A DNA stretch of 64,000 nucleotides from positions 911 through 64,910 of the forward strand of contig JBQTJX010000018.1 in the NCBI GenBank assembly GCA_052386675.1. The letters are read 5' to 3'. The notes below the pieces were generated by a model that was not told the DNA's origin, did no database searches, and saw only the letters and a list, made by a program, of their open reading frames with translations. Made by a program: the position numbers and the translations under genes. Source of the stretch: Betaproteobacteria bacterium (GTDB taxonomy: Bacteria; Pseudomonadota; Gammaproteobacteria; Burkholderiales; SG8-39). Positions 765 through 26,631 of this stretch are shown here, in pieces (position 1 is the stretch's first letter; each line of letters begins with the position of its first letter).

Positions 765-792
765 TGGCTCCAATCAGTTCAGCAGGGGCCGA

Positions 793-3600: not shown

Positions 3601-3681
3601 TGATCGTCCTTGCACAACAATACCAATGCGCTGCTCGCGGCAGTGAATTCGGGGGCTGTACATTGTCGGCAAAGCTTCGGG

Positions 3682-3687
3682 TATAAT
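3682..3687 (+). promoter_or_regulatory. candidate -10 hexamer TATAAT for the ahcY leader
   Basis: A perfect TATAAT, rare in this GC-rich sequence, sits about 10 nt upstream of the riboswitch P1 stem. I did not identify a convincing -35. Confidence 0.35.
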
Positions 3688-3695
3688 CCGCCCCC

Positions 3696-3768
3696 TGCTG
3701 AGGAGCGCTGCGTTCCCGAATCAAGGCATCCGGGGAATCAGGCTCAGCAAAATAAACGGCGCTCGCAT
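3696..3768 (+). promoter_or_regulatory. SAH (S-adenosylhomocysteine) riboswitch, Rfam RF01057 class
   Basis: CUGAGGAGCGCUGC ... GUUCCC/GGGGAAU hairpin ... AGGCUCAGCAA ... AACGGCGCUCGC. P1 pairs CUGAG with CUCAG, and the pseudoknot pairs GAGCGC with GCGCUC. It sits directly 5' of ahcY, the canonical betaproteobacterial context. Confidence 0.85.
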
Positions 3769-3827
3769 TGGAAACGATGCGGGCGCCTCGCTTTTGGGGC
3801 TCCGCAAAACCGACAAAGGAGCTCCAC

Positions 3828-5237
<1,410 letters not shown>

Positions 5238-5319: not shown

Positions 5320-6243
5320 ATGTTGACGGACAAGCTGCAGGATCCGCACCACGGGGTGCTGCTGTATGGCACCACGCCGCCGCGCGCGGGGGCGACGGAG
5401 GAGCAGGTGCGCGCCGCGGCGGACAAGCTCGCGGCGCGCCTGGCGCCGCTGCCGCTGGATGGCGTGGTGGTCTACGACATCCAGGACGAGTCCGGAAGGA
5501 CGGCCACGGCGCGTCCGTTCGCATTCACCGGAACGGTGGACCCGCGCGACTACTCCCGCCTGCTCGCGAGCGTGACCAGGCGGCCCGCGATCACCTACAA
5601 GTGCGTCGGCGACCTGGACGAGGCCGCGTGGCAGCAGTGGCTGGCTGAGGCCGCGCGCGACTACGGCGTGAAGTTCCTCTCCATCGTCGGCCGCCCCACT
5701 TCCGGCGTGACCTACCCGCTGTCCCTGTCGAAGGCGATCCGCCTCGCCGCAGCGCACCCGGCCGGGTTCGAAGTGGGCGGCGTGGTCATCGCCGAGCGCC
5801 ACACCGGCGAGCGCAGCGAATCGGCACGCATGCTCGCCAAGGGCATCGAGGGCTGCAGCTACTTCATCTCGCAGACGGTGTATTCCGCGGAGGCGACCAT
5901 CCGCCTGCTCGCGGACTACGCGCGCGACTGCCGCGGCGCCGGCGTGCCGCCGCGGCGCGTGATCCTCAGCTTCTCGCCCGTGGGGCGCGAGAAGACCCTC
6001 GCGTTCCTGAAGTGGCTGGGCGTCAGCGTGCCCGAGGCGACCGCGGGCGCCATCCTCGGCGCGGCCAATCCGCTGTCGAAGTCCATCGAAGTCTGCCGCG
6101 ACAACCTCGCCCGCATCCTGGACCAGCCCTACGCGAAGGCGATTCCGCTCGGGATCAGCGTGGAGAGCGTATCGATCAACAAGGACGAGATCGACGCCAG
6201 CGTGGACCTCGTCCACGCCCTGCGCGCCGCGCTGCCTCAGTAA
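5320..6243 (+). CDS. methylenetetrahydrofolate reductase-like protein, apparently the non-canonical (mycobacterial Rv2172c-like) type
   Basis: Occupies the metF position downstream of ahcY. LLYGTTPPRA..., YFISQTVYSAEATIRLLADYARDC and VILSFSPVGREKTLAFLKWLG resemble my recollection of Rv2172c/MSMEG_6649-type MTHFR more than E. coli MetF. Confidence 0.6.
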   Translation: MLTDKLQDPHHGVLLYGTTPPRAGATEEQVRAAADKLAARLAPLPLDGVVVYDIQDESGRTATARPFAFTGTVDPRDYSRLLASVTRRPAITYKCVGDLDEAAWQQWLAEAARDYGVKFLSIVGRPTSGVTYPLSLSKAIRLAAAHPAGFEVGGVVIAERHTGERSESARMLAKGIEGCSYFISQTVYSAEATIRLLADYARDCRGAGVPPRRVILSFSPVGREKTLAFLKWLGVSVPEATAGAILGAANPLSKSIEVCRDNLARILDQPYAKAIPLGISVESVSINKDEIDASVDLVHALRAALPQ

Positions 6244-9200
6244 TTTTCCCTGAAGTAGATGTAGTTGTTCGGCTGGCCGCCGAAGAGGCCGAAGCTGGCC
6301 CGGCCCGAAGGGTTGTCGTCGTAGGCCGTGGCGCCAATCGCGTCCGGGTCCAGGGCGTCGTTCCAGCGCCCGACCAGGTAGGGCCGCGCCGCGCTCACGA
6401 TGGCGTCCTCGCCGCTGGAGGCGTTGTCGCAGGAGAAGCCCGCGGCCGTGCCCCGCAGTTGCGGCGTGACCAGCACGCTGCCGGTGGCGCCGCCGGTGGG
6501 CGCCGCCAGCCTGAGCGTGCCCGCGCCCGAGGCGAAGACCACAGGGTCCTGCTGCACGAACGTCTTGCAATTGCCTCCGCCCGGGGCGAGCGCGCCGATG
6601 TAGGACCCCAGCGCCAGGGTGTTGCGCGCCAGGGTCGTGCAGCTGTCGGCCGTGTTCAGCGCGAACGCGGTGCCGTTCCAGTACTCCAGCCGCAGCGGCA
6701 CCGGCAGCACGAGCCTGGCCGAGCCCAGCGCGTTGTTCACCCGCAGCCGCCCGTAGCGCAGCTCCGCTGATACGCCGAGGTTCTTGCGGTCCATGATGGT
6801 GTTGTTGTCCGCGTCCAGATCCAGGGTGTTCATGGCGACGCCGTCGGAATCGGCCGGCGCGATGCCGAAGGCGGTGGCGGCGAACGGCCCGTCGGGCGCA
6901 TCCGGCGTCGCGCGCAGGACCGCTGTGGTGAGCTCGATCCCGCTCGCCACGCCGTTCGCCCAGCTCCCCGCCGGGGCGACCCCGGTGTCCAGCCGCCCGC
7001 TCAGATCGGTCGTGCCGTCGCGCGCGCCGAGCACCCAGTTGCCGAAGGTGTTGAGGCCCAGCTTGGCATAGCTGCCGGTGTAGTTCTGCGTGGTGGCGTC
7101 CTGCGCGCTCTGCGCCGTTAGCGTGAAGGCGAGGCGCAGCGGCTCGTCCAGATAGGTGAAGCTCGAGGCCGGCGTGCAGGCGGCTCCGTGCCGGGTCGTG
7201 AGCGTCGCCCCGCTCAGCGCGAAGTGCTTCGGGCGGAAACGCCCGACGTGCCCGCCGGTGAAGCCGGTTCCGTCGAAGCTCGACAGCCCGAACACGCTCA
7301 CGCCGGGCTCGATGTAGTCGGTGGCGAACACCGCGATCTTCACGTTGCCCGCCTCGGTGTAGCAGGTGTCGGCGAGGGTCGCCGCGCCGCCCGACCAGCT
7401 GCCCGCGGACACCGTGCCGCTCCCGCCCGGACAGCCCCCGCCGCGCCGGATCTCGCCCAGCGCCACCCCCGGCAGGTTGGTGAGTGCGCTCAATGATACG
7501 TTGGCCGCGAAGTTGGGCGTCAGGCCGTTGTCGGTGAGGTCCACCACGTCGGGCGCGGCGAAATCGGGCACGCCGTTGTTGTTCAGGTCCTCGGCAGCGG
7601 ACTGCCACTTGTAGGCCGCGAGCGTCATCGTGAACGGGTCGCCCGCCGCGGCGAGGAGGGTCCCGGCGTCGGTGGAACTGTGCGCGATCGCCGTGCCGGC
7701 ATTTGCTCCGCGCACCGCGATGCCAAAGGGCCGCACCACGAAGGCGTTGCTCGTGCCGCTGATCGTGGTCGCCGGCGGCGCGGGCAGCGTGTAGCGCAGG
7801 TGCAGCGTCACCTGCCCGGCGTCGCCGTAGCGGAACGCGAGCGGCGCCATGGCGTTGGCGTCGTTGCTGAAGGCGAGCGACACGGGGGTGTACGAGCCCG
7901 GCGTCGGCGTGTCGTCGTGCTTGACCACGTTTTGCGCCGTGCCGAAGCGGTCGATGAGCTGGAACTCCGTGCCGGCGGCCACGCTGCAGGCGGTGGGGTT
8001 GTTGCACACCGCGGCAAACTCCACGCTCTGGTTCTGGCCCTGGAACAGCGTGGTGCAGGCCCCCGTCGCGGGCGCGGTTGCCACCGCCTGGACAAAGAGG
8101 GCCTGCACGCCGGCGCCCTCGGTGTTGAGCTTCCCGGCGATCTGGGTGTTGATGCTCGCGCTCGCCGAACCGTCCGCCGTCACCCGCAGCACGCTGTCGG
8201 CAAAGCTCACCGAAGGGTCCTCGCCGCCGTCCTCGCCGCGCCCGTTGCTGTCGCTGAGGTTCAGGCCCAGCGCGCCCGCGCTGTTGCGCCGCAGGCGCAT
8301 TTCGATGAAGCTCTCCACGCCGTCCCAGGTGTAGGTCGCCTGTCCGTTGTCCGCGCCCGAGGGCGCCCAGCTGGCGTTGGTGCCGGAGACAATGGGCGAT
8401 TGCCACACCCCGTTCGCGGTGGTGGTGTTGATCGTCAGCACGGTGCCCGCCGCCGGCGCGGCCGCGGCGTGCGTGTCATCGTGCGCGGTAATGCGCACCA
8501 GCGCCGGCTCGCAGGTGGCGAAACTGGTTCCGTTCGGGTAGCTCACGGAATAATGGGTGTAGGGCGGCAGGCAGCGGTACAGGCCCGCGCCAAGGCCCGG
8601 CGTCGGGCCCGCCGGAATCGCGCTGAAACCGGGATCGCCCGGCGGCCGCCAGCGCAGGCGGATCTCGGATTGCCCGCCATTCTCGTAGTACTCCAGCCGG
8701 ATGGCATAGGCCTGTCCGGCCGCGAGCGCGATGTTGCCGCTGGTCTCCGTATGCGCCGCCTGGTCCACCCAGTTGTCGATCATCAGCTGGCCGTTCACCC
8801 ACAGCCGCACGCCGTCGTCGGCGACGGTCTGGAACTGGAAGTTGCCCGAGACGCCAGCGCGCAGGACGCCGTCCCAGCGCACCGAGAAATTGTCCGCGCC
8901 GATGCCCGTGACCCCGGGCGCGCCGCCCGCCCAGTTGAAGTCGACCGGCCCATCCACGCGCGTGCCTGTCGCGGACCCGGCCAGCGTCATGTTCGAGAAG
9001 TACTCGCCGTTGATCCCGCCCGCGAGGCCGGCGACGCAGGTCACCGGTTCGGGCAGCAGCGCGATGGACAGGAACGCCTTGACCGAACTGGCGACGGTCG
9101 CGGTGGTGTTTCCGGTGGCGCCCGCGTCGGTCTTCACGCCGTCCCAAACCGCGAAGCCCCCGCCATCGCCGGAGGTCGTGCCGCCATCGTCCCGCTCGGC

Positions 9201-9752
9201 GAGGTTGAGCAGGTTGGCGTTCACCTGGTTGCTGAAGGACGCCGCGGCCGAGTCGTTGTGCCGCGTCACGGCCTGCACCACGAGGGTGTCGGGAACGGTG
9301 GTGGCGATGCCCGTGACCGTCACCGAAGTACTGGCCGGCGCGCCCTGCGTGCCGCCGCCGGTGACGTTCCACGGATCGCCGGTGCTGACGACGCCGCGGT
9401 AGGTGAAGATCTGCGCGCGGACGTGATTGCCGGGATCGCCGACCGTCGGCGCGGCCATGGCCGCGGAGGTGGCTCGCCTCCAGTACACCGTCAGCCTGGT
9501 GCCGCTGACCGGGGCGTTCACGTTCTGCGGGCTGTTCGCCACCGCGGCAAAGCCCTGCGCGTTGGACAGGTTGGCCGCCTGGTTGCCCCGGCTCTCGATG
9601 ACCAGCAGCGCGACGTCGCCGGCGACATGCGCCGGCCATGGCGGGACGACCGCGCCGGTGCCGGAGACGGCCACGCCCGCCGCCTGGAAGACGGGCGCGC
9701 CGTGCGCCGCGCCGGCCAGCGCCATCAGCAGGACGAGGAGAAAAGGTCGCAC
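6237..9752 (-). CDS. giant secreted MshQ/DUF6701-like protein, paralog A (signal peptide, N-module, PA14 domain, conserved C-terminal body)
   Basis: GTG start and signal peptide MRPFLLVLLMALAGAAHG. PA14-like block GINGEYFSN...FSVRWDG...IRLEYYENGGQSEIRLRW. The C-terminal ~750 aa are colinear with paralogs B and C. It ends NNYIYFRENY, as I recall for MshQ-type proteins. Confidence 0.8.
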   Translation of the reverse strand: MRPFLLVLLMALAGAAHGAPVFQAAGVAVSGTGAVVPPWPAHVAGDVALLVIESRGNQAANLSNAQGFAAVANSPQNVNAPVSGTRLTVYWRRATSAAMAAPTVGDPGNHVRAQIFTYRGVVSTGDPWNVTGGGTQGAPASTSVTVTGIATTVPDTLVVQAVTRHNDSAAASFSNQVNANLLNLAERDDGGTTSGDGGGFAVWDGVKTDAGATGNTTATVASSVKAFLSIALLPEPVTCVAGLAGGINGEYFSNMTLAGSATGTRVDGPVDFNWAGGAPGVTGIGADNFSVRWDGVLRAGVSGNFQFQTVADDGVRLWVNGQLMIDNWVDQAAHTETSGNIALAAGQAYAIRLEYYENGGQSEIRLRWRPPGDPGFSAIPAGPTPGLGAGLYRCLPPYTHYSVSYPNGTSFATCEPALVRITAHDDTHAAAAPAAGTVLTINTTTANGVWQSPIVSGTNASWAPSGADNGQATYTWDGVESFIEMRLRRNSAGALGLNLSDSNGRGEDGGEDPSVSFADSVLRVTADGSASASINTQIAGKLNTEGAGVQALFVQAVATAPATGACTTLFQGQNQSVEFAAVCNNPTACSVAAGTEFQLIDRFGTAQNVVKHDDTPTPGSYTPVSLAFSNDANAMAPLAFRYGDAGQVTLHLRYTLPAPPATTISGTSNAFVVRPFGIAVRGANAGTAIAHSSTDAGTLLAAAGDPFTMTLAAYKWQSAAEDLNNNGVPDFAAPDVVDLTDNGLTPNFAANVSLSALTNLPGVALGEIRRGGGCPGGSGTVSAGSWSGGAATLADTCYTEAGNVKIAVFATDYIEPGVSVFGLSSFDGTGFTGGHVGRFRPKHFALSGATLTTRHGAACTPASSFTYLDEPLRLAFTLTAQSAQDATTQNYTGSYAKLGLNTFGNWVLGARDGTTDLSGRLDTGVAPAGSWANGVASGIELTTAVLRATPDAPDGPFAATAFGIAPADSDGVAMNTLDLDADNNTIMDRKNLGVSAELRYGRLRVNNALGSARLVLPVPLRLEYWNGTAFALNTADSCTTLARNTLALGSYIGALAPGGGNCKTFVQQDPVVFASGAGTLRLAAPTGGATGSVLVTPQLRGTAAGFSCDNASSGEDAIVSAARPYLVGRWNDALDPDAIGATAYDDNPSGRASFGLFGGQPNNYIYFRENY
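8637..9020 (-). other. PA14 carbohydrate-binding domain segment within paralog A (aa ~245-372)
   Basis: GEYF..., DFNW..., FSVRWDGVL, DDGVRLWVNGQLMIDNW and YAIRLEYYENGG are the classic PA14 motif order. Confidence 0.75.
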
Positions 9753-9820
9753 CGGCCGAAACTACCAAATCCGGTGCCGCAGGAAAATACCTCAGGCGGC
9801 GCGGAAAAGTTCCCGGCGAT

Positions 9821-12800
9821 TCAGTAGTTTTCCCTGAAGTAGATGTAGTTGTTGGGCTGGCTGCCGTAGACGCCGAAGCTGGCGCGGCCCGAGGGATTGT
9901 CGTCGTAGGCCGTGTTCGCGTCCGCGTCCGGGTTCGCGGCGTCGTTCCAGCGCCCGAGGAGGTACGGCCGCAGCGCGCTCGAGATGGCGTCCTCGCCGCT
10001 GGAGGCGTTGTCGCAGGAGAAGCCCGCGGCGGGGGAACGCAGCTGCGGCGTGACCAGCACGCTGCCGGAGGCGGCGCCGGTGGGCGCCGCCAGCGTGAGC
10101 GTGCCCAATCCCGCGGTGATGGTGACCGGATCCTGCTGGATGAAGGTCTTGCAGTTGCCCCCGCCCGGGTCCAGCGCGCCGGTGTAGGACCCCAGCGCGA
10201 AGGCGTCGCGCGCGAGCGTGGTGCAGCTGTCCAGCGTGTTGACGGCGAACGCGCTGCCGTTCCAGAACTCCGCGCGCACCGGCATCGGCAGCACGAGCTT
10301 GGCCGAACCGAGCGCGTTCTGCAGCCGCAGGCGGCCGAAGCGGACGGCCGAATCGGTGAGCGCGCCCAGGTTCTTGCGGTCCATGGCCGCGTTGTTGTCC
10401 ACGTCCAGGTCGAGCGTGTTCATGGCGACGCCATCGGAATCCGTGGGCGCGATGCCGTAGCTGATCGAGGTATAGGGCCCGTCGGGGACATCGGGGCTGG
10501 CGCGGTTGACCGCGGTCGTGAGCAGGATCCCGCTCGCCACGCCGTTGGACCAGCTCCCCGTCGGCGCGACCCCGGTGTCCAGCCGGCCGGTGAGGTTGGT
10601 GGTGCCGCTCCTCGCGCCCAGCGACCAGTTGCCGAAGGTGGTGAGGCCCAGCTTGGCGTAGACGCCGTCGTAGTTCGCCGTGGTGGCGTTCTGCGCGTTC
10701 TGCGCCGTGAGCGTGAAGCTGAGCCTGAGGTCCTCGTCCATGTAGCTGAAGGAAGAGGCCGGTGCGCAGGAAGCCCCGTGCCGGTTCGCCAGCGTCGCCC
10801 CGCTCACCGCGAAGTGCTTCGGGCGGAAGCGCCCGACGTGGCCTCCGGTGAAGCCCGAGCCGTCGAAGCTCGATAGCCCGAACACGCTGATGCCCCCGCC
10901 GGGCACGATATAGTCGGTGGCGAACACCGCGATCTTCACGTTGCCCGCCTCGGTGTAGCAGGCGTCGTTGATCGTCACCGCGCCCCCCGACCAGCTGCCC
11001 GCGGACACCGTCCCGGTGGCCGCAAGGCAGCCCACGCCGCGCCGGATCTCGCCCAGCGCCACCCCAGGCAGGTTGCTCAGTGCGCTCAGCGACACATCCG
11101 CGGCGAAGTTCGGCGTCAGGTCGTTGTCGGTGATGTCCACCACGTCGGGCGCGGCGAAATCGGGCACGCCGTTGGCGTTGGCGTCCTCCAGCGCCGAGGT
11201 CCACTTGTACGCCGCCAGGGTCAGGGTGAACGGATCGCCCGCAGCGGCCAGGACCGCGGCCGCTTCCGTGGTGCCATGCGCGATCGCCACCCCGGCGTTC
11301 GCCCCGCGCACCGCGATGCCGAAGGGCCGCACCACGAAGGCGTTGCTCGTGCCGCTGATGGTGGTCGCCGGCGGCGCGGGCAGCGTGTAGCGCAGGTGCA
11401 GCGTCACCTGCCCGGCGTCGCCGTAGCGGAAGACGAGCGGCGCCATGGCATTGGCGTCGTTGCTGAAGTTGAGCGACACCGAAGAATAGGACGCGGGCGT
11501 CACGGTGTTGTTGTTCTTCTGGATGTTCACCGCCGCCCCGGTGCCGTCGCCGCTGAAGATCTCGAACAGCGGCGCGTCGTTCACGTCAGGGTCAGCGCAG
11601 GTGGTCGGGTTGTTGCACACCGCGGCGAACTCGATCGCGCGGGTCTGGTTCTGGAACAGCGTGGTGCAGGCCCCCGTCGCCGGCGCCGTGGCCACCGCCT
11701 GCACGAACAGCGCCTGGATCCCGGAGCCCTCCGAATTTCGCTTGCCCGCGACCTGGGTGTCGATGTTCGCGCTCGCCGAGCCGTCCGCCGTCACCCGCAG
11801 CACGCTGTCGGCGAACACGATCGAGGGGTCCTCGCCCCCTGCGCCTTCGCTGCGTCCGGAGCCATCGGCGAGGTTGAGGTGCAGCGTCGTGGCGACATTC
11901 CGGCGCAGGTCCATCTCGATGAACGCCCCGTCGCCGTCCCAGGCATACGTGGCCGTGCCGGTGTCCGTTCCCGGGACGGTCCAGTTGGCGTTGATGCCGG
12001 TGATGAGGGGCGAGAGCCAGACGCCGTTGGCACTGGAGGTGCTGACCGAGAGCAGCGTCCCGGGCGGCGGCGCCACCGCGACGTGCGCGGCGTCGTGCGC
12101 CGTGACCCGCACCCGCCCCGGCTCGCAGGTGGCGAAATTCGTGCCGTTGGGATAGCTCACCGAGTAGTGCGTGTGGTGGATGGTGCAGGCGCGCGTCGCG
12201 CCCATCGCGGCGCCCACCTCGCCGGCGGTCAGCGCATGGCGGAACACGCGCACCTCGTCGACCTGGCCGTCGAAGAAGCGCCCGCCCAGGCCCTGGTCGG
12301 AGCCCACCTGCAGCGGGTCTGTGTTGGTCATCAGGCCGCCGGTGAAGGTGCCGCTGCCTCGCACGACGCCGTTGACGTAGATGGTCTGCGCCCCCGGCGT
12401 GTAGACCACGGCGATGTGGTACCAGCCGCCGCCGGCGGTGATGCCGGCGCCCGCGGTGAAGATCTCCTGCGCAGTGCCTCCGGCGTTCTCCCACCACCAG
12501 TTGATCTCGCCGCCGCTGGTGAGGTGGAACTCGAAGTTCTCGTCCTTGGAGACGATGGTCTTGAGCGCGTCCGGGCCCACGGCGTTCGGGTTGATCCAGG
12601 CCATGACCGTGAACCGGCCGGTCATGTTGAGCAGGGCATTGTGCGCCACCTCGACATAGCTGGTGCTGCCGTTGAAGCTGCCGTAGCGGCAGGTGCCGAC
12701 CGCGCCGGCGATGGCCGGCGTGGCGCCGGCGGTGTTGGCGCCCGCGTTCGCGGTGCCGTGCAGGCCGTTGCCGCTGGAATCCTGCGGCGGGTACGACGAC

Positions 12801-14221
12801 CAGGTGGATTCGTCCAGGCGCAGCTGCAGGACTTCCGACGAACGCAGCACCACGATGTGCGCGGCGCCGTTGTCGCCGTTGCTGCCCACCGTGGCCGACT
12901 TGTCGCCGGTGGCGCCGGCCGCGGCCTGCGCCACGTCGTTCATCTCGAGTGCCACCCCTTCGGCGTTGGTGGTGGCGATCGCGGGGACGTCCACCCGTTC
13001 CGTCATGCCGGCAGGCGGGGTCCAGGCCACGGAAGAGGCGAAGCTGTGCGCGGTGACCACCATCGTGCTCGCGACCGTGGTGGTGACACCGGTCGCGGTG
13101 TGGGTCGTGCCCGATGCCGTGGTGTTGGCCGCGGACAGGTGGATCGGCGTCAGGGTATCCACGCCCACGTAGGTCGCGATGCCGCCTGCCGCGCCGGTGG
13201 TCGCGGTTCCGCCCAGCGTCCAGGTGTAGGACGCGGGCTCGGTCGCGCCGGCCACGCGCTGGTAGGTCACCAGGCGGTTGGAGGTCCCGGCGGTGTTGTG
13301 CAATTCAGTCCAGCCCGCGGGCGCGGTGACCGTGGCGCCGCTGGGGGCGACGGCAATCGAGGCCAGCATCACGTCCTCTTCCACCGTTCCCGCCGGGACG
13401 TTGACCGCGAGCGTGGTCACCGCGGGCGCGCGCAGCGCGATGGTCAGCCAGGCGTTGCGAATGCTGGTCGGCGCGCTGGAGGCTGTGCTGGTTCCAGTGC
13501 TCCCCGGCGTGGCGAAAGTCGCGTCCCAGACGGCGAAGCCGCCGCCATTGCTCTGGTTGGTGCCGCCATCGACGCGCTCGGTGATTCCGGTCAGGTTGGC
13601 ATTGGTGAGGCTGGCGAAAAACGCGCCGTTGGCATCGTTGTCCCGGGCCACGCCGACGACGACGCGCGTGTTGCAGACCGTCGTGGTGACGGCGGTCACG
13701 GTGGAGGAGGTGGCGCCGGAGTCCCGCGCGCCGCCGGCGGTGGCGTCCCAGGGATTGCCCGTGGTGATCACCCCCCGGTAGACGAGGATTTGCGCAAAGA
13801 AGTGGTTACCGGGGTCGGCAAAAGTGGCGTTCGCCGTGCCCGCGGCGGTGGCGCGCCGCCAGAACACGCTGAGGCGGGTATCGCCCGCGGCTGACTGCGG
13901 GCTGTTGGCGACCGCCGTCCAGCCGGCGGGGGTCGCAACGTTTTCATCGTCGGTTTCGACGAACAGCAGGCCGATGTCATCGGCAACGTGGGCGGGCCAG
14001 GGTACCGAGGCGGCCCCGGTGCCTGCCTGCGCCGTTCCCGCCGCCACGAAGGCCGGCGCCGCCGCATAGCCGCAGGAACTGGCCGAGGCGGCGGATCGGA
14101 ACGCGATCTCGCCCTTGGAAGTGCCCGCGGCTACCAGCGAGAGCAAGAGCACGACGAAGCGGAGCAGCAGCATGATATCGGTCGTCAGCCTAGCACCGCC
14201 CGGCCGGAGATGCCGTGACAT
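9821..14221 (-). CDS. giant secreted MshQ/DUF6701-like protein, paralog B (signal peptide, two N-modules, LamG domain, conserved C-terminal body)
   Basis: 1466-aa ORF. The likely true start is ATG 14173 (MLLLRFVVLLLSLVAAG). It carries a LamG/Laminin_G_3-like block and the same C-terminal body, ending NNYIYFRENY. Confidence 0.8.
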   Translation of the reverse strand: MSRHLRPGGARLTTDIMLLLRFVVLLLSLVAAGTSKGEIAFRSAASASSCGYAAAPAFVAAGTAQAGTGAASVPWPAHVADDIGLLFVETDDENVATPAGWTAVANSPQSAAGDTRLSVFWRRATAAGTANATFADPGNHFFAQILVYRGVITTGNPWDATAGGARDSGATSSTVTAVTTTVCNTRVVVGVARDNDANGAFFASLTNANLTGITERVDGGTNQSNGGGFAVWDATFATPGSTGTSTASSAPTSIRNAWLTIALRAPAVTTLAVNVPAGTVEEDVMLASIAVAPSGATVTAPAGWTELHNTAGTSNRLVTYQRVAGATEPASYTWTLGGTATTGAAGGIATYVGVDTLTPIHLSAANTTASGTTHTATGVTTTVASTMVVTAHSFASSVAWTPPAGMTERVDVPAIATTNAEGVALEMNDVAQAAAGATGDKSATVGSNGDNGAAHIVVLRSSEVLQLRLDESTWSSYPPQDSSGNGLHGTANAGANTAGATPAIAGAVGTCRYGSFNGSTSYVEVAHNALLNMTGRFTVMAWINPNAVGPDALKTIVSKDENFEFHLTSGGEINWWWENAGGTAQEIFTAGAGITAGGGWYHIAVVYTPGAQTIYVNGVVRGSGTFTGGLMTNTDPLQVGSDQGLGGRFFDGQVDEVRVFRHALTAGEVGAAMGATRACTIHHTHYSVSYPNGTNFATCEPGRVRVTAHDAAHVAVAPPPGTLLSVSTSSANGVWLSPLITGINANWTVPGTDTGTATYAWDGDGAFIEMDLRRNVATTLHLNLADGSGRSEGAGGEDPSIVFADSVLRVTADGSASANIDTQVAGKRNSEGSGIQALFVQAVATAPATGACTTLFQNQTRAIEFAAVCNNPTTCADPDVNDAPLFEIFSGDGTGAAVNIQKNNNTVTPASYSSVSLNFSNDANAMAPLVFRYGDAGQVTLHLRYTLPAPPATTISGTSNAFVVRPFGIAVRGANAGVAIAHGTTEAAAVLAAAGDPFTLTLAAYKWTSALEDANANGVPDFAAPDVVDITDNDLTPNFAADVSLSALSNLPGVALGEIRRGVGCLAATGTVSAGSWSGGAVTINDACYTEAGNVKIAVFATDYIVPGGGISVFGLSSFDGSGFTGGHVGRFRPKHFAVSGATLANRHGASCAPASSFSYMDEDLRLSFTLTAQNAQNATTANYDGVYAKLGLTTFGNWSLGARSGTTNLTGRLDTGVAPTGSWSNGVASGILLTTAVNRASPDVPDGPYTSISYGIAPTDSDGVAMNTLDLDVDNNAAMDRKNLGALTDSAVRFGRLRLQNALGSAKLVLPMPVRAEFWNGSAFAVNTLDSCTTLARDAFALGSYTGALDPGGGNCKTFIQQDPVTITAGLGTLTLAAPTGAASGSVLVTPQLRSPAAGFSCDNASSGEDAISSALRPYLLGRWNDAANPDADANTAYDDNPSGRASFGVYGSQPNNYIYFRENY
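12218..12826 (-). other. LamG / concanavalin-A-like lectin domain segment within paralog B (aa ~466-668)
   Basis: LRLDESTW...DSSGNGLHGT...FNGSTSYVEV...FTVMAWINP...WYHIAVVY...IYVNGV...FDGQVDEVRVF is the typical Laminin_G_3 motif order. Confidence 0.7.
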
Positions 14222-14248
14222 CCGCCCTGCGACGGACGCACCCGTGGT

Positions 14249-17200
14249 TCAGTAATTTTCCCTGAAGTAGATGTAGTTGTTGGGCTGGCTGCCGTAGACG
14301 CCGAAGCTGGCGCGGCCCGAGGGGTTGTCGTCATGGGCCGTAGTCGCGTCCGCGTCCGGGTTCGCGGCGTCGTTCCAGCGCCCGGTGAGGTAGGGCCGCG
14401 CTGCGCTCACGACCGCATCCTCGCCGCTGGAGGCGTTGTCGCAGGAGTTGCCCGCCACGGTGGCGTGAAGCTGCGGCGTGAGCAGCACGCTGCCGCTCAC
14501 CGCACCGGTGGGCGCCGCCAGCGTGAGCGTGCCCAACCCTGCGGCGATGGCGACCGGATCCTGCTGGATGAACGTAGTGCAGTTTCCACCGCCGGGCGCG
14601 AGCGCACCGGTGTACGAGCCCAGCGCGATGGTGTTGCGCGCCAGCGTGGTGCAACTGTCGATGGTGTTCAGCTCGAAGGCGCTGCCGTTCCAGTACTCCA
14701 GGCGGATCGGCACCGGCAGCACGAGCTTCGAGGAACCCAGCGCGTTCTGCATTCGCAGCCGCCCGTAGCGCAGCAGCGCCGAGACACCGAGGTTTTTCCG
14801 GTCCATGACCGCGTTGTTGTCCACGTCCAGGTCCAGCGTGTTCATCGCGACGCTGTCCGGGTCCACAGGCGCGATGCCGAACGCGGTCGCGGTGAAGGGG
14901 CCGTCGGGGTTGTCCGGCGTGGCGCGATTGACCGCGGTGGTGAGGACGACGCCGCTCGCCACGCCGGCCGTCCAGCTGCCGGCCGGCGCGACGCCGGTGT
15001 CCAGTCGCGCGCTCAGGTTGGTCGTGCCGTCGCGCGCCCCGAGCGCCCAGTTGCCGAAGGTGGTGAGGCCCAGCTTGGCGTAGACGCCGTCGTAGTTCGC
15101 CGTGGTGGCGTTCTGCGCGTTCTGCGCCGTGAGCGTGAACGTGAGGTTCAGCGGCTCATCCAGGTAGGTGAAGGTGGAAGCCGGCGCGCAGGCGGCGCCC
15201 TGCCGGTTCGCCAGCGTCGCCCCGCTCACCGCGAAGTGCTTCGGGCGGAAGCGCCCGACGTGCCCGCCGGTGAAGCCGGTGCCGTCAAAGCTCGACAGCC
15301 CGAACACGCTGATGCCCCCGCCGGGCACGATGTAGTCGGTGGCGAACACGGCGATCTTGACGTTGCCCGCCTCGGAGTAGCAGGCGTCGTTGATCGTCAC
15401 CGACCCGCCCGACCAGCTGCCCGCCGCAACGGTCCCGGCACTTGCGCAATTGACCCCCCGCCCGATCGCCCCTGTCGCGAATACGCCGGGCGATATCTGG
15501 ACCCCAGGCAGGTTGCTCAGCGCGCTCAGCGACACATCCGCGGCGAAGTTCGGCGTCAGGCCGTTGTCGGTGATGTCCACCACGTCGGGCGCGGCGAAAT
15601 CGGGCACGCCGTTGGCGTTGGCGTCCTCCAGCGCCGAGGTCCACTTGTACGCCGCCAGGGTCAGGGTGAACGGATCGCCCGCGGCAGCCAGCACCGCGGC
15701 CGCTTCCGTGGTGCCATGCGCGATCGCCACTCCGGCGTTGGCGCCACGCACCGCGATGCCGAAGGGCCGCACCACGAAGGCGTTGCTCGTGCCCAGGATC
15801 GTGGTGGCGGGCGGCGAATCCAGCGTATGGCGCAGGAACAGCGTCATCTGCCCGGCGTCGCCGTAACGGAACGCGAGGGGCGCCATGGCGTTGGCGTCAT
15901 TGCTGAAGTTGAGGTTGATCGAGGTGTAGGTCGCGCTCAGCTGGGTGGCCGTGTTCGGATTCTTCGCCACGTCCACCGGCGAGCTGGCATTGTCCAGCAC
16001 CTGGAACTCGGTGCCCGCCACGGCGCTGCAGGTCGAGGGATTGTTGCACACGGCCGCGAACTCGATCGCCCGCGTCTGGTTCTGGAAGCGCGTGGTGCAC
16101 ACGCCGGAGCCGCCATCCTCCACCGCCTGCACGAACAGGGTCTGGATGCCCGCGCCCTCGGTGTTCAGCTTGCCCGCGATCTGCGTGGCCACCGTCGCGC
16201 TGCTGCTGCCGTTGACTGTGATCCGCAGCACGGTGCCGGCATAGGTGACCGAGGGATCCTCGCCCGCGTCTTCGCTGCGCGAACCGGCGTCGGTCAGGTT
16301 CAGATGCAGGCTGCCGGCGGTGTTGCGGCGCAGGCGCGCCTCGATGAAGGTCTCGATGCCGTTCCAGGTATAGGTCGCCTGGCCGTTGTTGGCGCCCGAG
16401 GGCGTCCAGTTGGCGCCAGTGCCGGTGACCAGGGGCGAGAGCCAGACGCCGTCGGCGGTGGAGGTGTTGATGGTGAGCACGGTCCCGGCTGGGGGCGCGA
16501 CCGCGCCGTGCGCTGTACTGTGCGCCGTGATGCGCACCAGCGCCGGCTCGCAGGTGGCGAAGCTGCTGCCACTGGGGTAGGTCACCGCGTAGTGGGAAAA
16601 ACCCGGCCGCAGCGCGAGCATGTGGGCAATGCCGCCATCGGCCGCCGGCGGCGCGGTCCAGCCAGCGCTGCGCGCGCCGGTCAGGCCGGCCGCCGCGCGC
16701 AGTTCGTGGTTCATCTCGACCGCTAGGCCCAGATCATTCGTGACCGCCAGCGAAGCGGCGTCGACCCGCTCGGTCATGCCCACGGGCGGGGTCCAGAGCG
16801 TCGAGGAGTTGGCGCTATGCGTGCTGACCAGCATCGTGTCGGTTACCGAACCAGTATCGATGCTGGGCGCGGCGTGGTTGACCGAGGAAGCCGTCGTCTG
16901 GCCGCCCTCGACCACCACGGGGTTACTGGTATCGACTCCAGAGAAGCTGATGATGCCGCCGACCGCGCCCGCATGCACCAGCGCGCCGCCGAAGGACCAG
17001 GCGTAGTTCGCCGGCTCGGACCCGGTGGCGACCCGCTGGTAGACGAACAGGCGGTTGCCGAAGCCTCCGGTGCCGCCTCCGGTGGTCTGGTCCGTCACGC
17101 TGTTGACCAGTGTCCATCCCGCAGGCGGTGTGACGCTCGTGGTGCAGGCCGCGCCGCTGGTGCCGCTGCAGGGCCGGAATGTAACGCTGGCGACCATGAC

Positions 17201-18028
17201 GTCGCCCGCCAGCGTGGCCGCCGGCACGTTGATGCTGAGCGTCGAGGCGGGCGGGCGCAGCGCGATGCTGAGCATGGCCTTGGCGGTGTTCGACGAGGTG
17301 GTCACCGTCGTCGCGCCGTAGCCCCCGGTCGTCGCCCATGCGCCGGTGGTGATCCCCAGGCCGCCGCCGTTGCCCTGGTTGGTGGAGTTGTCGGTCCGCT
17401 CGGCGAGGCCAGTCAGGTTCCCATTGGCCTGCGCGGAGAATACCGTCGTGCCGGTCAAATCGGGCAGCGCGGTCGCGATCGCGGCCACGACGAAGGTGTT
17501 GGGCACGGTCGTGGTCGCGCCCGGGATGGAACCGCTGGTATCCGTGTTGCCGGCCTCGACGCCGCCTGCGGTGACGTCCCAGGGATCGCCGGTGGTGATG
17601 ACGCCCCGCACGGCGATGATGCGTCCGAGCTGGTGATTGCCCGAATCGCTTGTCGTGGGCGCGCCCTGGACGCCGTTGTACCGCGACCAGAATACCGTCA
17701 ACCGGGCGCCATCGGCGCCAGCCGCCGTGCCGGTGCTCTGCGGGGAATTCAGGACCGCCGCCCAGACCCCGCCGTTCTGGTTGGCAATCGTGATGGCCTG
17801 GTTGGAGGTTTCCAGGAACAGCAGCAGGATGTCATTCGCCGCGAGGCCGGCGGGCAGCGCGGGCGCGATCGCGCCCGTGCCTGCGGCGACCGCGCCCGCG
17901 GCGACGAAAGTCGGCGCCGCCTGGCCGCCCGCGGAATTGGCCTGCGCGGAATCGCGATACGCGACCTGCGCCTGCGCCAGGGCGGCCGCGAACGTAAGAC
18001 ACGTTAGAAAAGCAAACCGGATCAGCAT
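14249..18028 (-). CDS. giant secreted MshQ/DUF6701-like protein, paralog C (signal peptide, two N-modules, conserved C-terminal body, no lectin cassette)
   Basis: ATG start and signal peptide MLIRFAFLTCLTFAAALAQA. The body is colinear with A and B, including a 293-nt block about 97% identical to B. It ends NNYIYFRENY. Confidence 0.8.
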   Translation of the reverse strand: MLIRFAFLTCLTFAAALAQAQVAYRDSAQANSAGGQAAPTFVAAGAVAAGTGAIAPALPAGLAANDILLLFLETSNQAITIANQNGGVWAAVLNSPQSTGTAAGADGARLTVFWSRYNGVQGAPTTSDSGNHQLGRIIAVRGVITTGDPWDVTAGGVEAGNTDTSGSIPGATTTVPNTFVVAAIATALPDLTGTTVFSAQANGNLTGLAERTDNSTNQGNGGGLGITTGAWATTGGYGATTVTTSSNTAKAMLSIALRPPASTLSINVPAATLAGDVMVASVTFRPCSGTSGAACTTSVTPPAGWTLVNSVTDQTTGGGTGGFGNRLFVYQRVATGSEPANYAWSFGGALVHAGAVGGIISFSGVDTSNPVVVEGGQTTASSVNHAAPSIDTGSVTDTMLVSTHSANSSTLWTPPVGMTERVDAASLAVTNDLGLAVEMNHELRAAAGLTGARSAGWTAPPAADGGIAHMLALRPGFSHYAVTYPSGSSFATCEPALVRITAHSTAHGAVAPPAGTVLTINTSTADGVWLSPLVTGTGANWTPSGANNGQATYTWNGIETFIEARLRRNTAGSLHLNLTDAGSRSEDAGEDPSVTYAGTVLRITVNGSSSATVATQIAGKLNTEGAGIQTLFVQAVEDGGSGVCTTRFQNQTRAIEFAAVCNNPSTCSAVAGTEFQVLDNASSPVDVAKNPNTATQLSATYTSINLNFSNDANAMAPLAFRYGDAGQMTLFLRHTLDSPPATTILGTSNAFVVRPFGIAVRGANAGVAIAHGTTEAAAVLAAAGDPFTLTLAAYKWTSALEDANANGVPDFAAPDVVDITDNGLTPNFAADVSLSALSNLPGVQISPGVFATGAIGRGVNCASAGTVAAGSWSGGSVTINDACYSEAGNVKIAVFATDYIVPGGGISVFGLSSFDGTGFTGGHVGRFRPKHFAVSGATLANRQGAACAPASTFTYLDEPLNLTFTLTAQNAQNATTANYDGVYAKLGLTTFGNWALGARDGTTNLSARLDTGVAPAGSWTAGVASGVVLTTAVNRATPDNPDGPFTATAFGIAPVDPDSVAMNTLDLDVDNNAVMDRKNLGVSALLRYGRLRMQNALGSSKLVLPVPIRLEYWNGSAFELNTIDSCTTLARNTIALGSYTGALAPGGGNCTTFIQQDPVAIAAGLGTLTLAAPTGAVSGSVLLTPQLHATVAGNSCDNASSGEDAVVSAARPYLTGRWNDAANPDADATTAHDDNPSGRASFGVYGSQPNNYIYFRENY

Positions 18029-18090: not shown

Positions 18091-19134
18091 TCAGTCCACT
18101 GCCCGACGGCCGGACTCCCCGTCCCGCTCGAAGGCGCGCCAGCGCGCGTCAGGCGCCGCCCTGCAGGCGCCGAAGCGGAACGGCGTCCGGTCCATGCCCG
18201 GGTTGGCGAAGCGCAGGTCGCGGAACCAGAAGCACTCGCCCCCGTGCGTGCTGCCATCGAAGGCGGGTGTCTCGGCGAACCAGCGGAAGAAGCCGAGCGC
18301 CGGAGAATCGAAGGCCTCGCGCGCGAGCGCGCCCTCGGCGCCCTCGCCGAAGCGCGGCCGGCTGTCCCAGCGCGCCTGAGCGAGGGGCCGGTAAGGCGCG
18401 TCCAGCATGGCGACGAAGCCATCGCCCTTCTCGTAGAGCTTCACCGCGTCGCGGCGCAGGTTGACGTGGCTGAAGTGGTGGTCGCGCGCGTCGCTCGCGA
18501 ACACAGTCCAGTTGTAGGGGGACACCGGCCGCGGGTAAGCGAGGACGCGCGCCTCCTGCAGGCCGCGCGAGGCGGCGTAGCGCTCGCCGTGCTCCAGCGC
18601 TTCCTGCTTCAGCGTCCACTGCCAGCCGACATAGCCCGCGAGGGCCGCCGAGGCGAGCACCGCGGGAAGGCGCGACCGGTACAGGACCGCCGAGGCCGCG
18701 AGCCCGGCGACGATGATGCCGCTGAACCACAGGTCGATGATGAACGTGGTGCCGATGCCGGCGCGCCAGTCCGACAGCGGGCTCAGCACCATGGTGCCGA
18801 AGCTGGTGATCCAGTCCCCGGCGATGTGCAGGCACAGGCAGCTCAGGCTGACCGCGTACAGCGCGCGCCAGCCGCCCGGTTCACGCAGGAGCTTCGCGAG
18901 CAGCCACGCGACCGGGAAAGCCCACAGCGGCGCGAGCAGGAGCGAATGCGTCGGGCCGCGATGGTGCAGCAGGTATTCCACCGGCCCGAGGAAGCCGATG
19001 ACGAAATCCAGGTCCGGCGCGGCGCAGGCGAAGAACCCGGCGGCGACGCGGCGCGGCGTGGATCGGGGCTGCCCGGCGGGCGCGGTCGCGCGGGCGAGGA
19101 GCGCCCCCGAGAGGGCATGGGTCAGCGTGTCCAC
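18091..19134 (-). CDS. membrane-bound metal-dependent hydrolase, DUF457 / YdjM-like
   Basis: GTG start. (M)DTLTHALSGALLA...HRGPTHSLL... plus several hydrophobic helices, the typical YdjM/YbcI family N-terminus. Confidence 0.75.
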   Translation of the reverse strand: MDTLTHALSGALLARATAPAGQPRSTPRRVAAGFFACAAPDLDFVIGFLGPVEYLLHHRGPTHSLLLAPLWAFPVAWLLAKLLREPGGWRALYAVSLSCLCLHIAGDWITSFGTMVLSPLSDWRAGIGTTFIIDLWFSGIIVAGLAASAVLYRSRLPAVLASAALAGYVGWQWTLKQEALEHGERYAASRGLQEARVLAYPRPVSPYNWTVFASDARDHHFSHVNLRRDAVKLYEKGDGFVAMLDAPYRPLAQARWDSRPRFGEGAEGALAREAFDSPALGFFRWFAETPAFDGSTHGGECFWFRDLRFANPGMDRTPFRFGACRAAPDARWRAFERDGESGRRAVD

Positions 19135-19181
19135 GGGGCCGCAGGGTAGCAGTCCGCGCCAGCTTGCGTGAGAATGGCCGG

Positions 19182-20855
19182 ATGGCGGTCTTCAACCTCG
19201 GCAAGTTCCGCGACCTGGCCTTCGGCCGGGAACCGTTGCCGGACCATCCCCTGAGCGACGCGGCGGAAGCGAAGAAACTGCTGGCGCTCCTGCCAGAGGA
19301 CGACCCCGATACCGCGCTGGCCGACCTGACCCACTGGGCGGCAACCATGAACGCCACCGAATCCTTCACGCCCGGCCGGCGCGCGCAGGTGCTGATGGAA
19401 CTGGATGCGGCGGCGCGGCCGCTGTGGCGCGCGCAGTCCACCCGCTACCTGCGCCCCGGCGGCAAGCTGAGCGAAAGCCGCGACGGCGAGCCCGGGCTGC
19501 TGCGCGCGCTGAACGACTGCGCCGCCGAGATCGCCAACGGCTTCGCCATCGCGCTGGACGCGGACGGCGAGGACAAGGGCTGGATGAAGAAGAACCGGCC
19601 GCTGGTGACGCTGCGCAACCTGCGCTGGCTGAACCGGCGCCTGGCCATCTCGCACATGTTGCAGCTGTCGGCGACGGGTGCGATCTGGGAGCGCCTGCAC
19701 CGACTGCACGCCATCGCGGAGGAAGGCAAGTACGCGCGGACCGCCATTGCGGTGCCCGACAGCGGAGGCAGGACGAGTTCGGCTCGCGCCGAGTACTCGC
19801 ACGCGCTGCTGCTGGAGCTCGCCGCGCCCGACAGCCTGCGCGGCCGCGAGGTGGAACTGGTGTTCCGAATCGCGCAGCGCGTGGCAGCCACTGTGCAGGT
19901 CGAGGCGGCCGCCTCGCCCGAGGCAACGTTCGCCATCGTGCCCATGGGCGATGAGCGGCCGATGCAGGTGCGCCGGCTCGGCAAGGGCGCGCTGCCCGGA
20001 CTCCTGTACATCAACACCGCGAACACCCTGCCGCGCCTGCGCGCGGCGCTGGAGCGCGACCAGGGTCGCGATCCCGGCGAGGAGGACACGCAGTTCGGCA
20101 ACGAGTACACACTGCGCGAACGCAACGCCATCCTCAACCGCCTGCTGGAGCACTGGGGGCCGAACCCGCCGCAGCGGCGCCTGAAGCGCGTCGCCATGGC
20201 GACGCCGGTGCGGCTGCTGGCGGGCTTCGATGCCGTCATGGGTGTGGTGCCGCCGCTGGAGAAGGAACGCGTGCCCGACGCCGACGTGTCGCGGCGCGAA
20301 CTGCAGCTGAAGCTGGACGCGACCAGCAAGTCCATCCAGCGCAAACAGGTGAAGGCGGCGCGCCAGAGCCCGGCGCGGCTGGTGGACGCAAGCTCCGGAG
20401 GCATGGGAATCGCGGTGCGCCGGGCCGACGCGCCCTGGGCGACGCTGGGTACGCTGGTAGCAATCCTCATCGAGCCCGGCAAGGACTGGATCCTCGCGGT
20501 GCTGCGCCGCGTCTACTCGGTCGAGGACGAACTGCGCCTCGGCCTTCAGCTGCTCTCGGCGAAGCCGCGGCTGATCACGCTGAAGGCCGATCCGCACGCG
20601 GGCTCGTCGAACGCCTGGGAAGAGGCCACCATGTTCGAGGACAGCTTCAAGGAGCACTTCCGCAGCGCCATCCTGCTCGAGCCTCAGCCCACGCCGCTCG
20701 CGGCCGCGGAATTCCTGCTGGCGCCAAAGACCGCCACTCGCGGCACGCAGTTCGACCTGCAACTGGCGCGCGGCACGCAGCGCCTGCGCATCACGCGCCT
20801 GCACGTGGACAGCGAACACTTCCAGCGCGCCGCCTTCGAACCCCTGATTAAGTAG
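19182..20855 (+). CDS. conserved hypothetical protein with a possible degenerate PilZ-like motif in the C-terminal third
   Basis: The track ORF starts at TTG 19164; the first ATG is 19182 (MAVFNLGKFRDLAFG). Motifs QRRLKRV (RxxxR) and LVDASSGGMGI (DxSxxG) are present but about 65 aa apart, so this is not canonical PilZ spacing. Confidence 0.55.
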   Translation: MAVFNLGKFRDLAFGREPLPDHPLSDAAEAKKLLALLPEDDPDTALADLTHWAATMNATESFTPGRRAQVLMELDAAARPLWRAQSTRYLRPGGKLSESRDGEPGLLRALNDCAAEIANGFAIALDADGEDKGWMKKNRPLVTLRNLRWLNRRLAISHMLQLSATGAIWERLHRLHAIAEEGKYARTAIAVPDSGGRTSSARAEYSHALLLELAAPDSLRGREVELVFRIAQRVAATVQVEAAASPEATFAIVPMGDERPMQVRRLGKGALPGLLYINTANTLPRLRAALERDQGRDPGEEDTQFGNEYTLRERNAILNRLLEHWGPNPPQRRLKRVAMATPVRLLAGFDAVMGVVPPLEKERVPDADVSRRELQLKLDATSKSIQRKQVKAARQSPARLVDASSGGMGIAVRRADAPWATLGTLVAILIEPGKDWILAVLRRVYSVEDELRLGLQLLSAKPRLITLKADPHAGSSNAWEEATMFEDSFKEHFRSAILLEPQPTPLAAAEFLLAPKTATRGTQFDLQLARGTQRLRITRLHVDSEHFQRAAFEPLIK

Positions 20856-20907
20856 GGACGGACCACGATTTCCGGCGACGTCCCGCCGGAAATCGTGGTC
20901 CGTCCCT
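20854..20907. repeat. REP-like palindromic element, copy 2 (likely terminator between convergent genes)
   Basis: AGGGACGGACCACGATTTCCGG, a 10-nt loop, then CCGGAAATCGTGGTCCGTCCCT followed by GATTTT. Same arms as 5242..5299. Confidence 0.75.
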
Positions 20908-26608: not shown

Positions 26609-26631
26609 AAACGCATATTAGCACATCTCGC

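Follow-up and report, generated by a model that had tools for sequence, protein, structure and literature searches.

Contig JBQTJX010000018.1 of the Betaproteobacteria bacterium assembly GCA_052386675.1, a metagenome-assembled genome (MAG), carries three tandem genes, here called A, B and C, whose products are on balance probably alternative tip adhesins of a mannose-sensitive haemagglutinin (MSHA)-type type IV pilus encoded elsewhere in the genome. The window analyzed is the 64,000-nucleotide stretch of this 64,948-bp contig from position 911 to 64,910, and all three genes lie on its reverse strand, transcribed in the order C, B, A. Gene C, the first of the array (14249..18028; 1259 aa, MGQ0510092.1), encodes a signal peptide, two N-terminal modules (N-modules), a stalk containing DUF6701, and a C-terminal tail. 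Gene B (9821..14221; 1466 aa, MGQ0510091.1) has a signal peptide, two N-modules, a laminin G (LamG) domain, stalk and tail, while gene A, the last (6237..9752; 1171 aa, MGQ0510090.1), has a signal peptide, one N-module, a PA14 domain, stalk and tail. NCBI gives B as 1450 aa, starting from an internal ATG at 14173. The gap between C and B is 27 nt (75 nt with the NCBI start of B) and that between B and A is 68 nt, with no terminator-like hairpin found between the three genes; a sigma-70 scan of 5.2–21 kb, uninformative at 70% GC, returned no promoter-like site. All three open reading frames (ORFs) are intact, Sec-type signal peptides are visible in each sequence, every protein ends in ...QPNNYIYFRENY, and the GC content of the array (0.70) matches that of the remaining window. 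An earlier, sequence-only reading of this DNA had described three same-strand ORFs of these lengths with operon-like spacing, native GC, a signal peptide on each product and a common ending, and in all of this it was accurate.

The same reading had assigned the proteins to MshQ/DUF6701 and placed PA14 in A and LamG in B, and Pfam confirmed each point. DUF6701 (PF20419) was matched with E-values of 2.5e-87 in A, 3.1e-84 in B and 2.8e-83 in C (294.8, 284.6, and 281.4 bits, respectively, against a family cut-off of 27). Pfam now divides the body of these proteins into DUF6701_2nd, DUF6701_3rd, DUF6701_4th, and DUF6701, and precomputed matches to the whole set (PF28243, PF28247, PF28238, and PF20419) are available for B (P0001) and C (P0003); A has no listed companion-domain match, and its body is 74–75% identical to those of B and C. 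Many homologues are labelled “MSHA biogenesis protein MshQ” by JGI. PA14 (PF07691) was found in A at 7.8e-29 (100.8 bits, cut-off 24), together with GLEYA at 3.9e-7 and sequence matches to the PDB PA14 chains 6qe7 and 6qdi (1e-49 and 2e-43), and Laminin_G_3 (PF13385) was found in B at 1.2e-33 (116.8 bits, cut-off 27.6). A match to the TafC family fimbrial protein (NF052521), a haloarchaeal Tat-fimbria subunit, was rejected; at 37.9 bits against an equivalog cut-off of 410 it covers the LamG region only, and the LamG fold is all that B shares with TafC. The sequences, the stalk domains, and the tail all place A, B, and C in the MshQ/DUF6701 family, and gene position is the only respect in which they depart from it.

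The conserved body occupies aa 396–1171 of A (6240..8567), aa 682–1466 of B (9824..12178), and aa 479–1259 of C (14252..16594), and is predicted to form a stalk of Ig-like domains. An AlphaFold2 model of the last 776 aa of A is a chain of β-sandwich domains (pLDDT 90.7, pTM 0.79) with conserved cysteine pairs in the sandwiches, and Foldseek matched it at 1e-11 to 1e-6 to the Ig-like domains of PrgB, to invasin, InvE, AgI/II, SdrG, the S-layer protein SbsB, and alpha-2-macroglobulin. Residues of the model with pLDDT below 50 are confined to the C-terminal tail (763–765 and 767–776). In A this tail is the 14-residue segment GGQPNNYIYFRENY (6240..6281), for which we propose the role of docking strand, and its equivalents in B and C lie at 9824–9865 and 14252–14293, respectively. 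The motif ...ARAxFG...[FI]I[YF]xRExY-COOH is common to A, B, and C, to MshQs encoded within pilus loci, and to the mshQ of Aeromonas, and 109 of 122 homologues terminate in RE.[YF]. That the tail might be the single most conserved segment of the protein was considered and rejected: its final 25 aa rank 19th among 752 windows, above average without being at the top. Tails of canonical in-locus MshQs are mostly of the form xADEFIYLRExY, whereas A, B, and C carry the variant QPxN[FY]I[YF]xRExY, which is that of MshQs whose genes follow mshN.

A C-terminus such as ...YIYFRENY, with alternating hydrophobic residues and a terminal aromatic, also resembles the β-signals read by the β-barrel assembly machinery, and the proteins could on that basis be pictured as outer-membrane-anchored adhesins of the autotransporter or intimin kind. 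This is very improbable, given that the last 776 aa of A are modelled as soluble, cysteine-paired Ig-like sandwiches with neither a membrane β-barrel nor a β-propeller and with an unstructured tail, and that none of the three proteins has an autotransporter or intimin domain in Pfam. The disorder of the tail in the monomer model fits, instead, a strand that folds only on its partner, as has been proposed for MshQ itself: the MshQ C-terminus is predicted to add a β-strand to the minor pilin MshP, which would make MshQ functionally analogous to the PilC/PilY1 tip adhesins, whose C-terminus is proposed to complement PilK/PilX in the same way (PMC13533445). MshQ is regarded as a putative MSHA adhesin, and deletion of mshQ lowers the amount of surface MSHA pili in Vibrio cholerae (PMC7096442).

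By analogy with this MshQ and PilC/PilY1 model, each of the three proteins would be exported by Sec, and the tail at the end of the common Ig-like stalk, conserved and in the model intrinsically unstructured, would dock into the minor-pilin initiation complex by adding a β-strand to a minor pilin of the MshP/PilK type. The distal heads differ (two N-modules in C, two N-modules and LamG in B, one N-module and PA14 in A), and whichever paralogue primed a given pilus would set the adhesion target of that pilus. MshP docking, tip location, carbohydrate binding, and alternation between paralogues are thus all put forward here as inferred features. The proposal is made because Sec export, an Ig-like stalk, a terminal tail, lectin-type heads, and relatives encoded in MSHA operons all fit it.

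C carries N-module 1 at aa 36–262 (17243..17923) and N-module 2 at aa 263–478 (16595..17242); in B, mapping with hidden Markov models (HMMs) placed both N-modules at ORF aa 53–471 (12809..14065), followed by the Laminin_G_3 cassette, of the concanavalin-A-like lectin/glucanase fold, at aa 517–669 (12215..12673); and A has an N-module at aa 17–236 (9045..9704) and a PA14 carbohydrate-binding cassette at aa 246–375 (8628..9017). The sequence-only reading had spoken of an uncharacterized N-terminal module and of an extra N-module in two of the proteins. The module does lack both a Pfam model, in the copy searched, and a solved homologue; the two kinds are not separate domains, however, since the HMMs for N1 and N2 detect each other and so define one all-β repeat family of about 215 aa, present in one to four copies among homologues, of which N1 and N2 of C represent different ancient types. 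AlphaFold2 modelled N-module 1 of C as an all-β domain with high confidence (pLDDT 93.2, pTM 0.92), and Foldseek found no solved relative for it in the PDB (best E 8e-3, TM ≤ 0.3). A jelly-roll or cupin-like fold was considered, and no assignment was made because the matches were only weak, none better than those values. An N-module profile matched 32,163 representative proteins at E ≤ 1e-3 among 1.84 billion, including RHS-repeat proteins and one TadG-like Tad+VWA protein, and on the reach of this profile the N-module is a widespread extracellular module rather than one private to the array. It looks like a large uncharacterized extracellular domain family and would repay structural and glycan-binding study.

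Since the source is a MAG contig and repeats are prone to mis-assembly, a spurious triplication, or alternatively a set of decaying pseudogene copies, has to be considered, the more so as a related contig (L009) resembles an inverted-duplication artefact. We give this account next to no likelihood. The DNA of the shared bodies is only 76–78% identical and the N-terminal halves are built differently, for which reason the array is, as far as the assembled sequence tells, genuine; the three ORFs are intact with dN/dS well below 1, and another species (L011) holds two copies in the same chromosomal position. The related contig in question, a 15-kb sequence (JGI Ga0439221_255998), is a near-perfect inverted duplication with the gene order 307-aa gene, MshQ-like, YdjM, FimW / FimW, YdjM, MshQ-like, 307-aa gene, and is itself most likely an assembly artefact.

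Comparison of the three genes module by module showed that the cassette swapping claimed in the sequence-only reading is real. The stalks of A, B, and C are 74–76% identical to one another as proteins, with patches of 95–99% DNA identity against a background of about 77%; between B (about 10750–10950) and C (about 15150–15350) these include an identical run of 121 nt that looks like a recent gene-conversion tract. The heads behave differently. The N-module of A is only 47–53% identical to N1 of B and C, and yet 70–71% identical to N1 of P0011, P0021, and the second gene of L006, proteins whose bodies are 35–45% identical to that of A; a gene of N-PA14 type from within a pilus locus is among these carriers of an A-like N-module. 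N2 of C is likewise 76–79% identical to modules on stalks that are only 47–48% identical (79% for N2 of P0034, with a body at 48%). The single gene of one relative, P0002, is mosaic: its N1 is of C type (84% identity), and its N2 (79%), LamG (90%), and stalk (80%) are all of B type. N1 of B is only 49% identical to the N-terminal region of P0002. Synonymous divergence (dS) is 0.75–0.86 in the heads and 0.26–0.68 in the stalks, and dN/dS is 0.5–0.76 in the heads and 0.2–0.45 in the stalk, below 1 everywhere. Read most simply, these comparisons mean that recombination has joined old head types in new combinations to a stalk undergoing concerted evolution in the lineage. Rapid diversification of the heads was rejected as an explanation, in that the divergence between paralogues reflects different old module types and dN/dS stays below 1; the repertoire called “diversifying” at first appears instead to be a reshuffling of old, well conserved heads, as the 70–71% identity of A’s N-module to modules on distant bodies illustrates. 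The array would accordingly have arisen by duplication and recombination in a conserved chromosomal slot, old heads being placed on a lineage-homogeneous stalk, a homogeneity presumably imposed by the need to match the resident docking partner.

The positions of homologues were established through context look-ups and a scan of species-representative genomes (34 loci, annotated by tblastn) in which the source MAG was not included and the best match was a 73% relative. Three settings emerged. In the canonical one, found in about 20 species, one of them the isolate Pelomicrobium sp. G1, the order is MshE (MshEN+T2SSE), MshG, four to five prepilins, MshD/O/P, DUF6701, MshI to MshL (Secretin_N_2), and MshM/N, and homologues 38–47% identical to the proteins described here sit between mshP and mshI of complete MSHA loci. 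At least seven of these canonical loci hold a tandem pair or triplet, with a recurring order of N-N-body followed by N-PA14-body. In the second setting, that of some Betaproteobacteria, the gene directly follows mshN at the end of the locus, as in L022 (9722–14140) and L014 (6451–10239); mshP abuts mshI in L022, and L014 holds no pilin genes. The contigs of P0013 and P0025 agree in size with contigs of MshL matches (10,714 and 30,553 bp), which suggests the same after-mshN arrangement for them. This arrangement has the look of a stage midway between the canonical position and the detached one.

The detached setting, that of the array, is a slot with the order aminotransferase, (FimW_N-like), YdjM, DUF6701, (307-aa gene), AhcY, found in at least 12 species. 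The interval from ahcY to ydjM, which the sequence-only reading had singled out for comparison among relatives, holds one DUF6701 gene in L001 and L009, two in L011, and three here, and the heads vary: N-N-LamG-body in L001, the closest relative (73–80% identical), N-N-body in L009, and PA14-LamG-body in L027. A further orphan DUF6701 gene lies among metabolic genes in L048. The arrangement is not singular, the same slot carrying one, two, or three genes in at least 12 species, in-locus tandems being common, and other orphans existing. On gene content and order the array is a variation on a tandem mshQ paralogy already present inside pilus loci. No detached or multi-copy mshQ is apparent from the titles and abstracts of 20 of the 36 papers found on MshQ and its pilus, and DUF6701 was mentioned only in unrelated work in the literature searched; to that extent the detached multi-copy arrangement is undescribed, yet it is common in metagenome-derived Burkholderiales.

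In the Burkholderiales MAG contig JAHCAI010000002.1, two complete MSHA-type loci are adjacent (L028, 73.7–98.5 kb; L034, 99.3–123.1 kb), each with several MshQ paralogues. The 4.9-Mb chromosome of Aeromonas caviae (NZ_AP026896.1, deposited as a plasmid) has a canonical gammaproteobacterial locus, mshBACDOP, mshQ, mreBCD, whose mshQ region is 34% identical to the body of A over 222 aa and ends in ...AIFGSSRGNDRVIYRREVLH, the same motif as in A, B, and C, which confirms their link to bona fide MshQ. This region (L049, 3424–9960) is split into several ORFs, pointing to frameshifts that stem either from sequencing errors or from a pseudogene. On chromosome 2 of Vibrio campbellii (NZ_CP050465.1; 2.06 Mb, likewise deposited as a plasmid), L050 (5405–8374) encodes a 989-aa DUF6701-like protein with a signal peptide and the MshQ-like tail FGIHRGNDRIIYRGEPNFIGMN, its similarity being weak (22% over 524 aa). 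No pilin-like ORF lies within about 5 kb on either side, and a detached MshQ-like gene may exist in Vibrio too.

Several observations weigh against the proposal that A, B, and C serve a pilus encoded elsewhere. No pilus gene was found within the 64 kb of the window: no prepilin motif is present in its six frames, no homologue of MshE, MshG, or MshL occurs anywhere in it, and no pilin, secretin, or pilus ATPase was detected by Pfam in most of the remaining sizeable ORFs, the Pfam scan having covered all but those at about 1–773, at 26360–26617, and in the last ~5.8 kb. The absence of pilin, secretin, ATPase, and msh genes claimed on first reading is borne out by these scans. Beyond the window, the lists of MshE and MshL homologues contain no protein traceable to the source MAG or to orphan-bearing contigs, the MshE list comprising the top 120 matches, all at least 79% identical to the query. 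The MshE homologue MGQ0578447.1, from the same submission batch, was considered as this MAG’s own and rejected; its accession is ~68,000 away and hence belongs to another MAG, and its contig ends after mshE. Accession proximity tied no MSHA locus to the orphan P0007, a search started from the L022 MshL gave nothing on the contigs that bear orphans, and neither to the source MAG nor to another slot-bearing genome could an MSHA or other type IV pilus locus be linked. The five MSHA loci found through MshE or an in-locus MshQ, three of them in MshE-seeded look-ups for loci lacking mshQ, all have an in-locus mshQ of their own, and the matching “mshQ-less” locus was seen only in the form with mshQ after mshN. 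The tip role of MshQ rests on a mutant phenotype and AlphaFold modelling in Vibrio and not on direct localization (PMC7096442; PMC13533445), and carbohydrate binding by the heads is putative.

Because no pilus locus could be tied to slot-bearing genomes, weight has to be given to readings in which the proteins have become independent of MSHA pili or have been retargeted. The proteins may, as in the sequence-only reading, be self-standing lectins, secreted or at the surface, for which the MshQ scaffold was co-opted and which do without a pilus and use another route of export or anchoring; we regard this as unlikely without being far-fetched. In its favour, the genes lie apart from all pilus genes, their slot is old and conserved in at least 12 species, further orphans occur in unrelated contexts (L048; Vibrio campbellii chromosome 2), and in the genome scan no slot-bearing genome had a second copy in a pilus locus. 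The state of the tail speaks differently: it is intact, strictly terminal as in pilus-linked MshQs, and disordered without a partner, its closest type is that of MshQs encoded at the ends of MSHA operons, and no alternative anchor or secretion signal was found (no β-barrel, lipobox, or type I or type V secretion system domains). “Decoupled from the pilus machinery”, the wording of the sequence-only reading, is thus correct for gene position and does not extend to the C-terminal tail, which has been kept as in pilus-linked relatives and is disordered in the monomer. There is also a minor chance that the MshQ-type proteins of this lineage form a pilus-locus-independent system, whose tail docks a partner that is not an MSHA minor pilin or which belongs to a lineage without MSHA pili; detached arrays may in such a system join ancient N-modules, present in more than 30,000 representative proteins, and lectin cassettes on a lineage-specific stalk.

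The tails could, alternatively, dock a PilX- or GspK-type pilin, making the proteins tip components of another type IV filament such as a PilA-type type IVa pilus (T4aP) or the pseudopilus of a type II secretion system (T2SS). Docking by addition of a terminal β-strand has been put forward as a general feature of type IV filaments (PMC13533445), a gene already outside the MSHA locus would be easy to retarget, and in the closest relatives a FimW_N-like gene lies 1 kb away. Even so we judge this distinctly unlikely, as every pilus-linked relative was found in an MSHA-type locus (MshEN ATPase, Secretin_N_2) and none in a PilY1-type or T2SS locus, and most slot-bearing species are without the FimW-like gene. 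In the window this gene (19164..20855, forward strand, 563 aa) is divergent from ydjM and is counted here as context rather than as a shown member of the system. It had no match in the Pfam copy searched, in NCBIfam, or in the PDB, and its L001 orthologue, 87% identical, carries FimW_N (PF27104). Only the closest relatives (L001, L009) have it in the slot. In Pseudomonas, T4aP assembly is stimulated by FimW, an effector of c-di-GMP (PMC10212136), and by that analogy the neighbour is a weak hint of a pilus connection.

One boundary of the slot is formed by ahcY (3768–5237), preceded immediately upstream by an S-adenosylhomocysteine (SAH) riboswitch (RF01057; 3694–3771, forward strand, 45.5 bits), and, downstream of ahcY, by the 307-aa gene (5320..6243, forward strand), which is conserved in the slot and convergent with A. 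The stops of the two convergent genes overlap by 7 nt (TCAGTAA, 6237–6243), an overlap reported in the sequence-only reading and found to be real. That reading had labelled the flanks as housekeeping, with ahcY and an MTHFR-like gene on one side and a DUF457 gene on the other; ahcY and the housekeeping character hold, and the DUF457 flank corresponds to YdjM (PF04307), whereas “MTHFR-like” is unverified, the 307-aa protein having no Pfam or NCBIfam match and a best PDB sequence match to 3ijd (1e-51), itself an “uncharacterized protein”. On the other side, ydjM (18091..19134, reverse strand; PF04307, 3e-34) encodes a YdjM/DUF457 inner-membrane protein 62 nt upstream of C on the same strand. YdjM followed by DUF6701 was seen in L001, L009, L011, L012, L016, L019, L024, L027, L035, and L037, and most species with the slot keep the two genes adjacent, even at an identity of only 40–47% between the MshQ-like proteins, L004 having the slot without YdjM; ydjM could be an operon partner or a case of mere synteny. 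In E. coli, ydjM is SOS-regulated. The one LexA-box match near ydjM in the window is at chance level and lies inside gene C, not upstream of ydjM, and was discarded.

Neighbours with Pfam or Rfam matches include the helicase IV-like gene, the SAH riboswitch and ahcY, YdjM, an aminotransferase, HxlR, a major facilitator superfamily transporter, tannase, RecQ, a GGDEF protein, IlvA, UvrD, LeuS, HolA, RsfS, Maf, and RNase G, and by these matches they are housekeeping genes. The class-V aminotransferase (20915–22423, reverse strand) is 87–95% identical across all slot-bearing relatives and has an N-terminal YdaS/Cro-type helix-turn-helix, an unusual fusion. Between it and the convergent FimW-like gene, a perfect hairpin with a 20-bp stem (20857–20904) is probably a bidirectional terminator. 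The helicase IV/UvrD-like gene (793–3672, reverse strand) has a C-terminal Top1-type zinc ribbon, and the DNA from about 1 to 4000 has a GC content of 0.57–0.61 against 0.70; the gene may have been acquired horizontally.

With MshQ as known from V. cholerae (VC0414), Aeromonas, and Shewanella, the three proteins share Pfam family, size class, Sec signal peptide, and the tail ...FG...IYxRE.., and their relatives hold the mshQ position after mshD/O/P. They differ in lying away from pilus genes in a housekeeping slot, in being three tandem paralogues in place of one gene, and in having heads of repeated N-modules with PA14 or LamG, where MshQ is known in function only as a “putative adhesin”. The in-locus tandems of Burkholderiales (for example JAIEPF010000002.1, L006/L040; L025, L029, L034, L036, L038, and L039) belong to the same family and tail class and follow the same cassette logic and order, N-N-body then N-PA14-body. 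They lie between mshP and mshI, however, and their bodies are old paralogues, ~39% and 30% identical to that of A, whereas the bodies in the array are 74–76% identical to one another and a third gene, of LamG type, is intercalated. Lectin heads on Ig-like rods are shared with PA14/GLEYA, LapA-type, PrgB, invasin, and AgI/II adhesins; these are anchored through the cell wall, type I secretion, or an outer-membrane barrel in contrast to the pilus-tip docking proposed here, and the homology is one of generic folds only.

PilC/PilY1 proteins, tip adhesins of type IVa pili, come as alternative paralogues that differ in their binding N-termini, and the PilC genes of Neisseria lie away from those for pilin and minor pilins. 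A large secreted protein that primes and caps a pilus by its C-terminus is the proposal that A, B, and C would have in common with PilC1/PilC2 of Neisseria and the PilY1 paralogues of Pseudomonas, Xylella, and Kingella (PMC13533445). The likeness ends there: those proteins have a C-terminal β-propeller (PF05567), which had no Pfam match in A, B, or C, and serve another pilus subtype, and because the three lack a propeller and have a different fold, the Ig-like stalk, with no kinship in sequence or fold, they are not members of the PilC/PilY1 family.

In Vibrio, Shewanella, Aeromonas, and many environmental Betaproteobacteria the MSHA pilus is a major organelle of attachment to surfaces, and MshQ is among its least understood parts. 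The MshQ family is seen here to be modular, its members being composed of heads for binding, a stalk of predicted Ig-like domains, and a putative docking tail at the C-terminus, the heads being exchanged between genes while the stalk tracks the host lineage, and an mshQ-type gene can leave the pilus locus and multiply. These findings extend current ideas and overturn none, and they bear on how MSHA pili gain binding specificity. If the tip-adhesin model is true, one pilus machine would present several binding specificities, like PilC1/PilC2 of Neisseria, and the arrays would be natural chimeras for mapping which part binds what.

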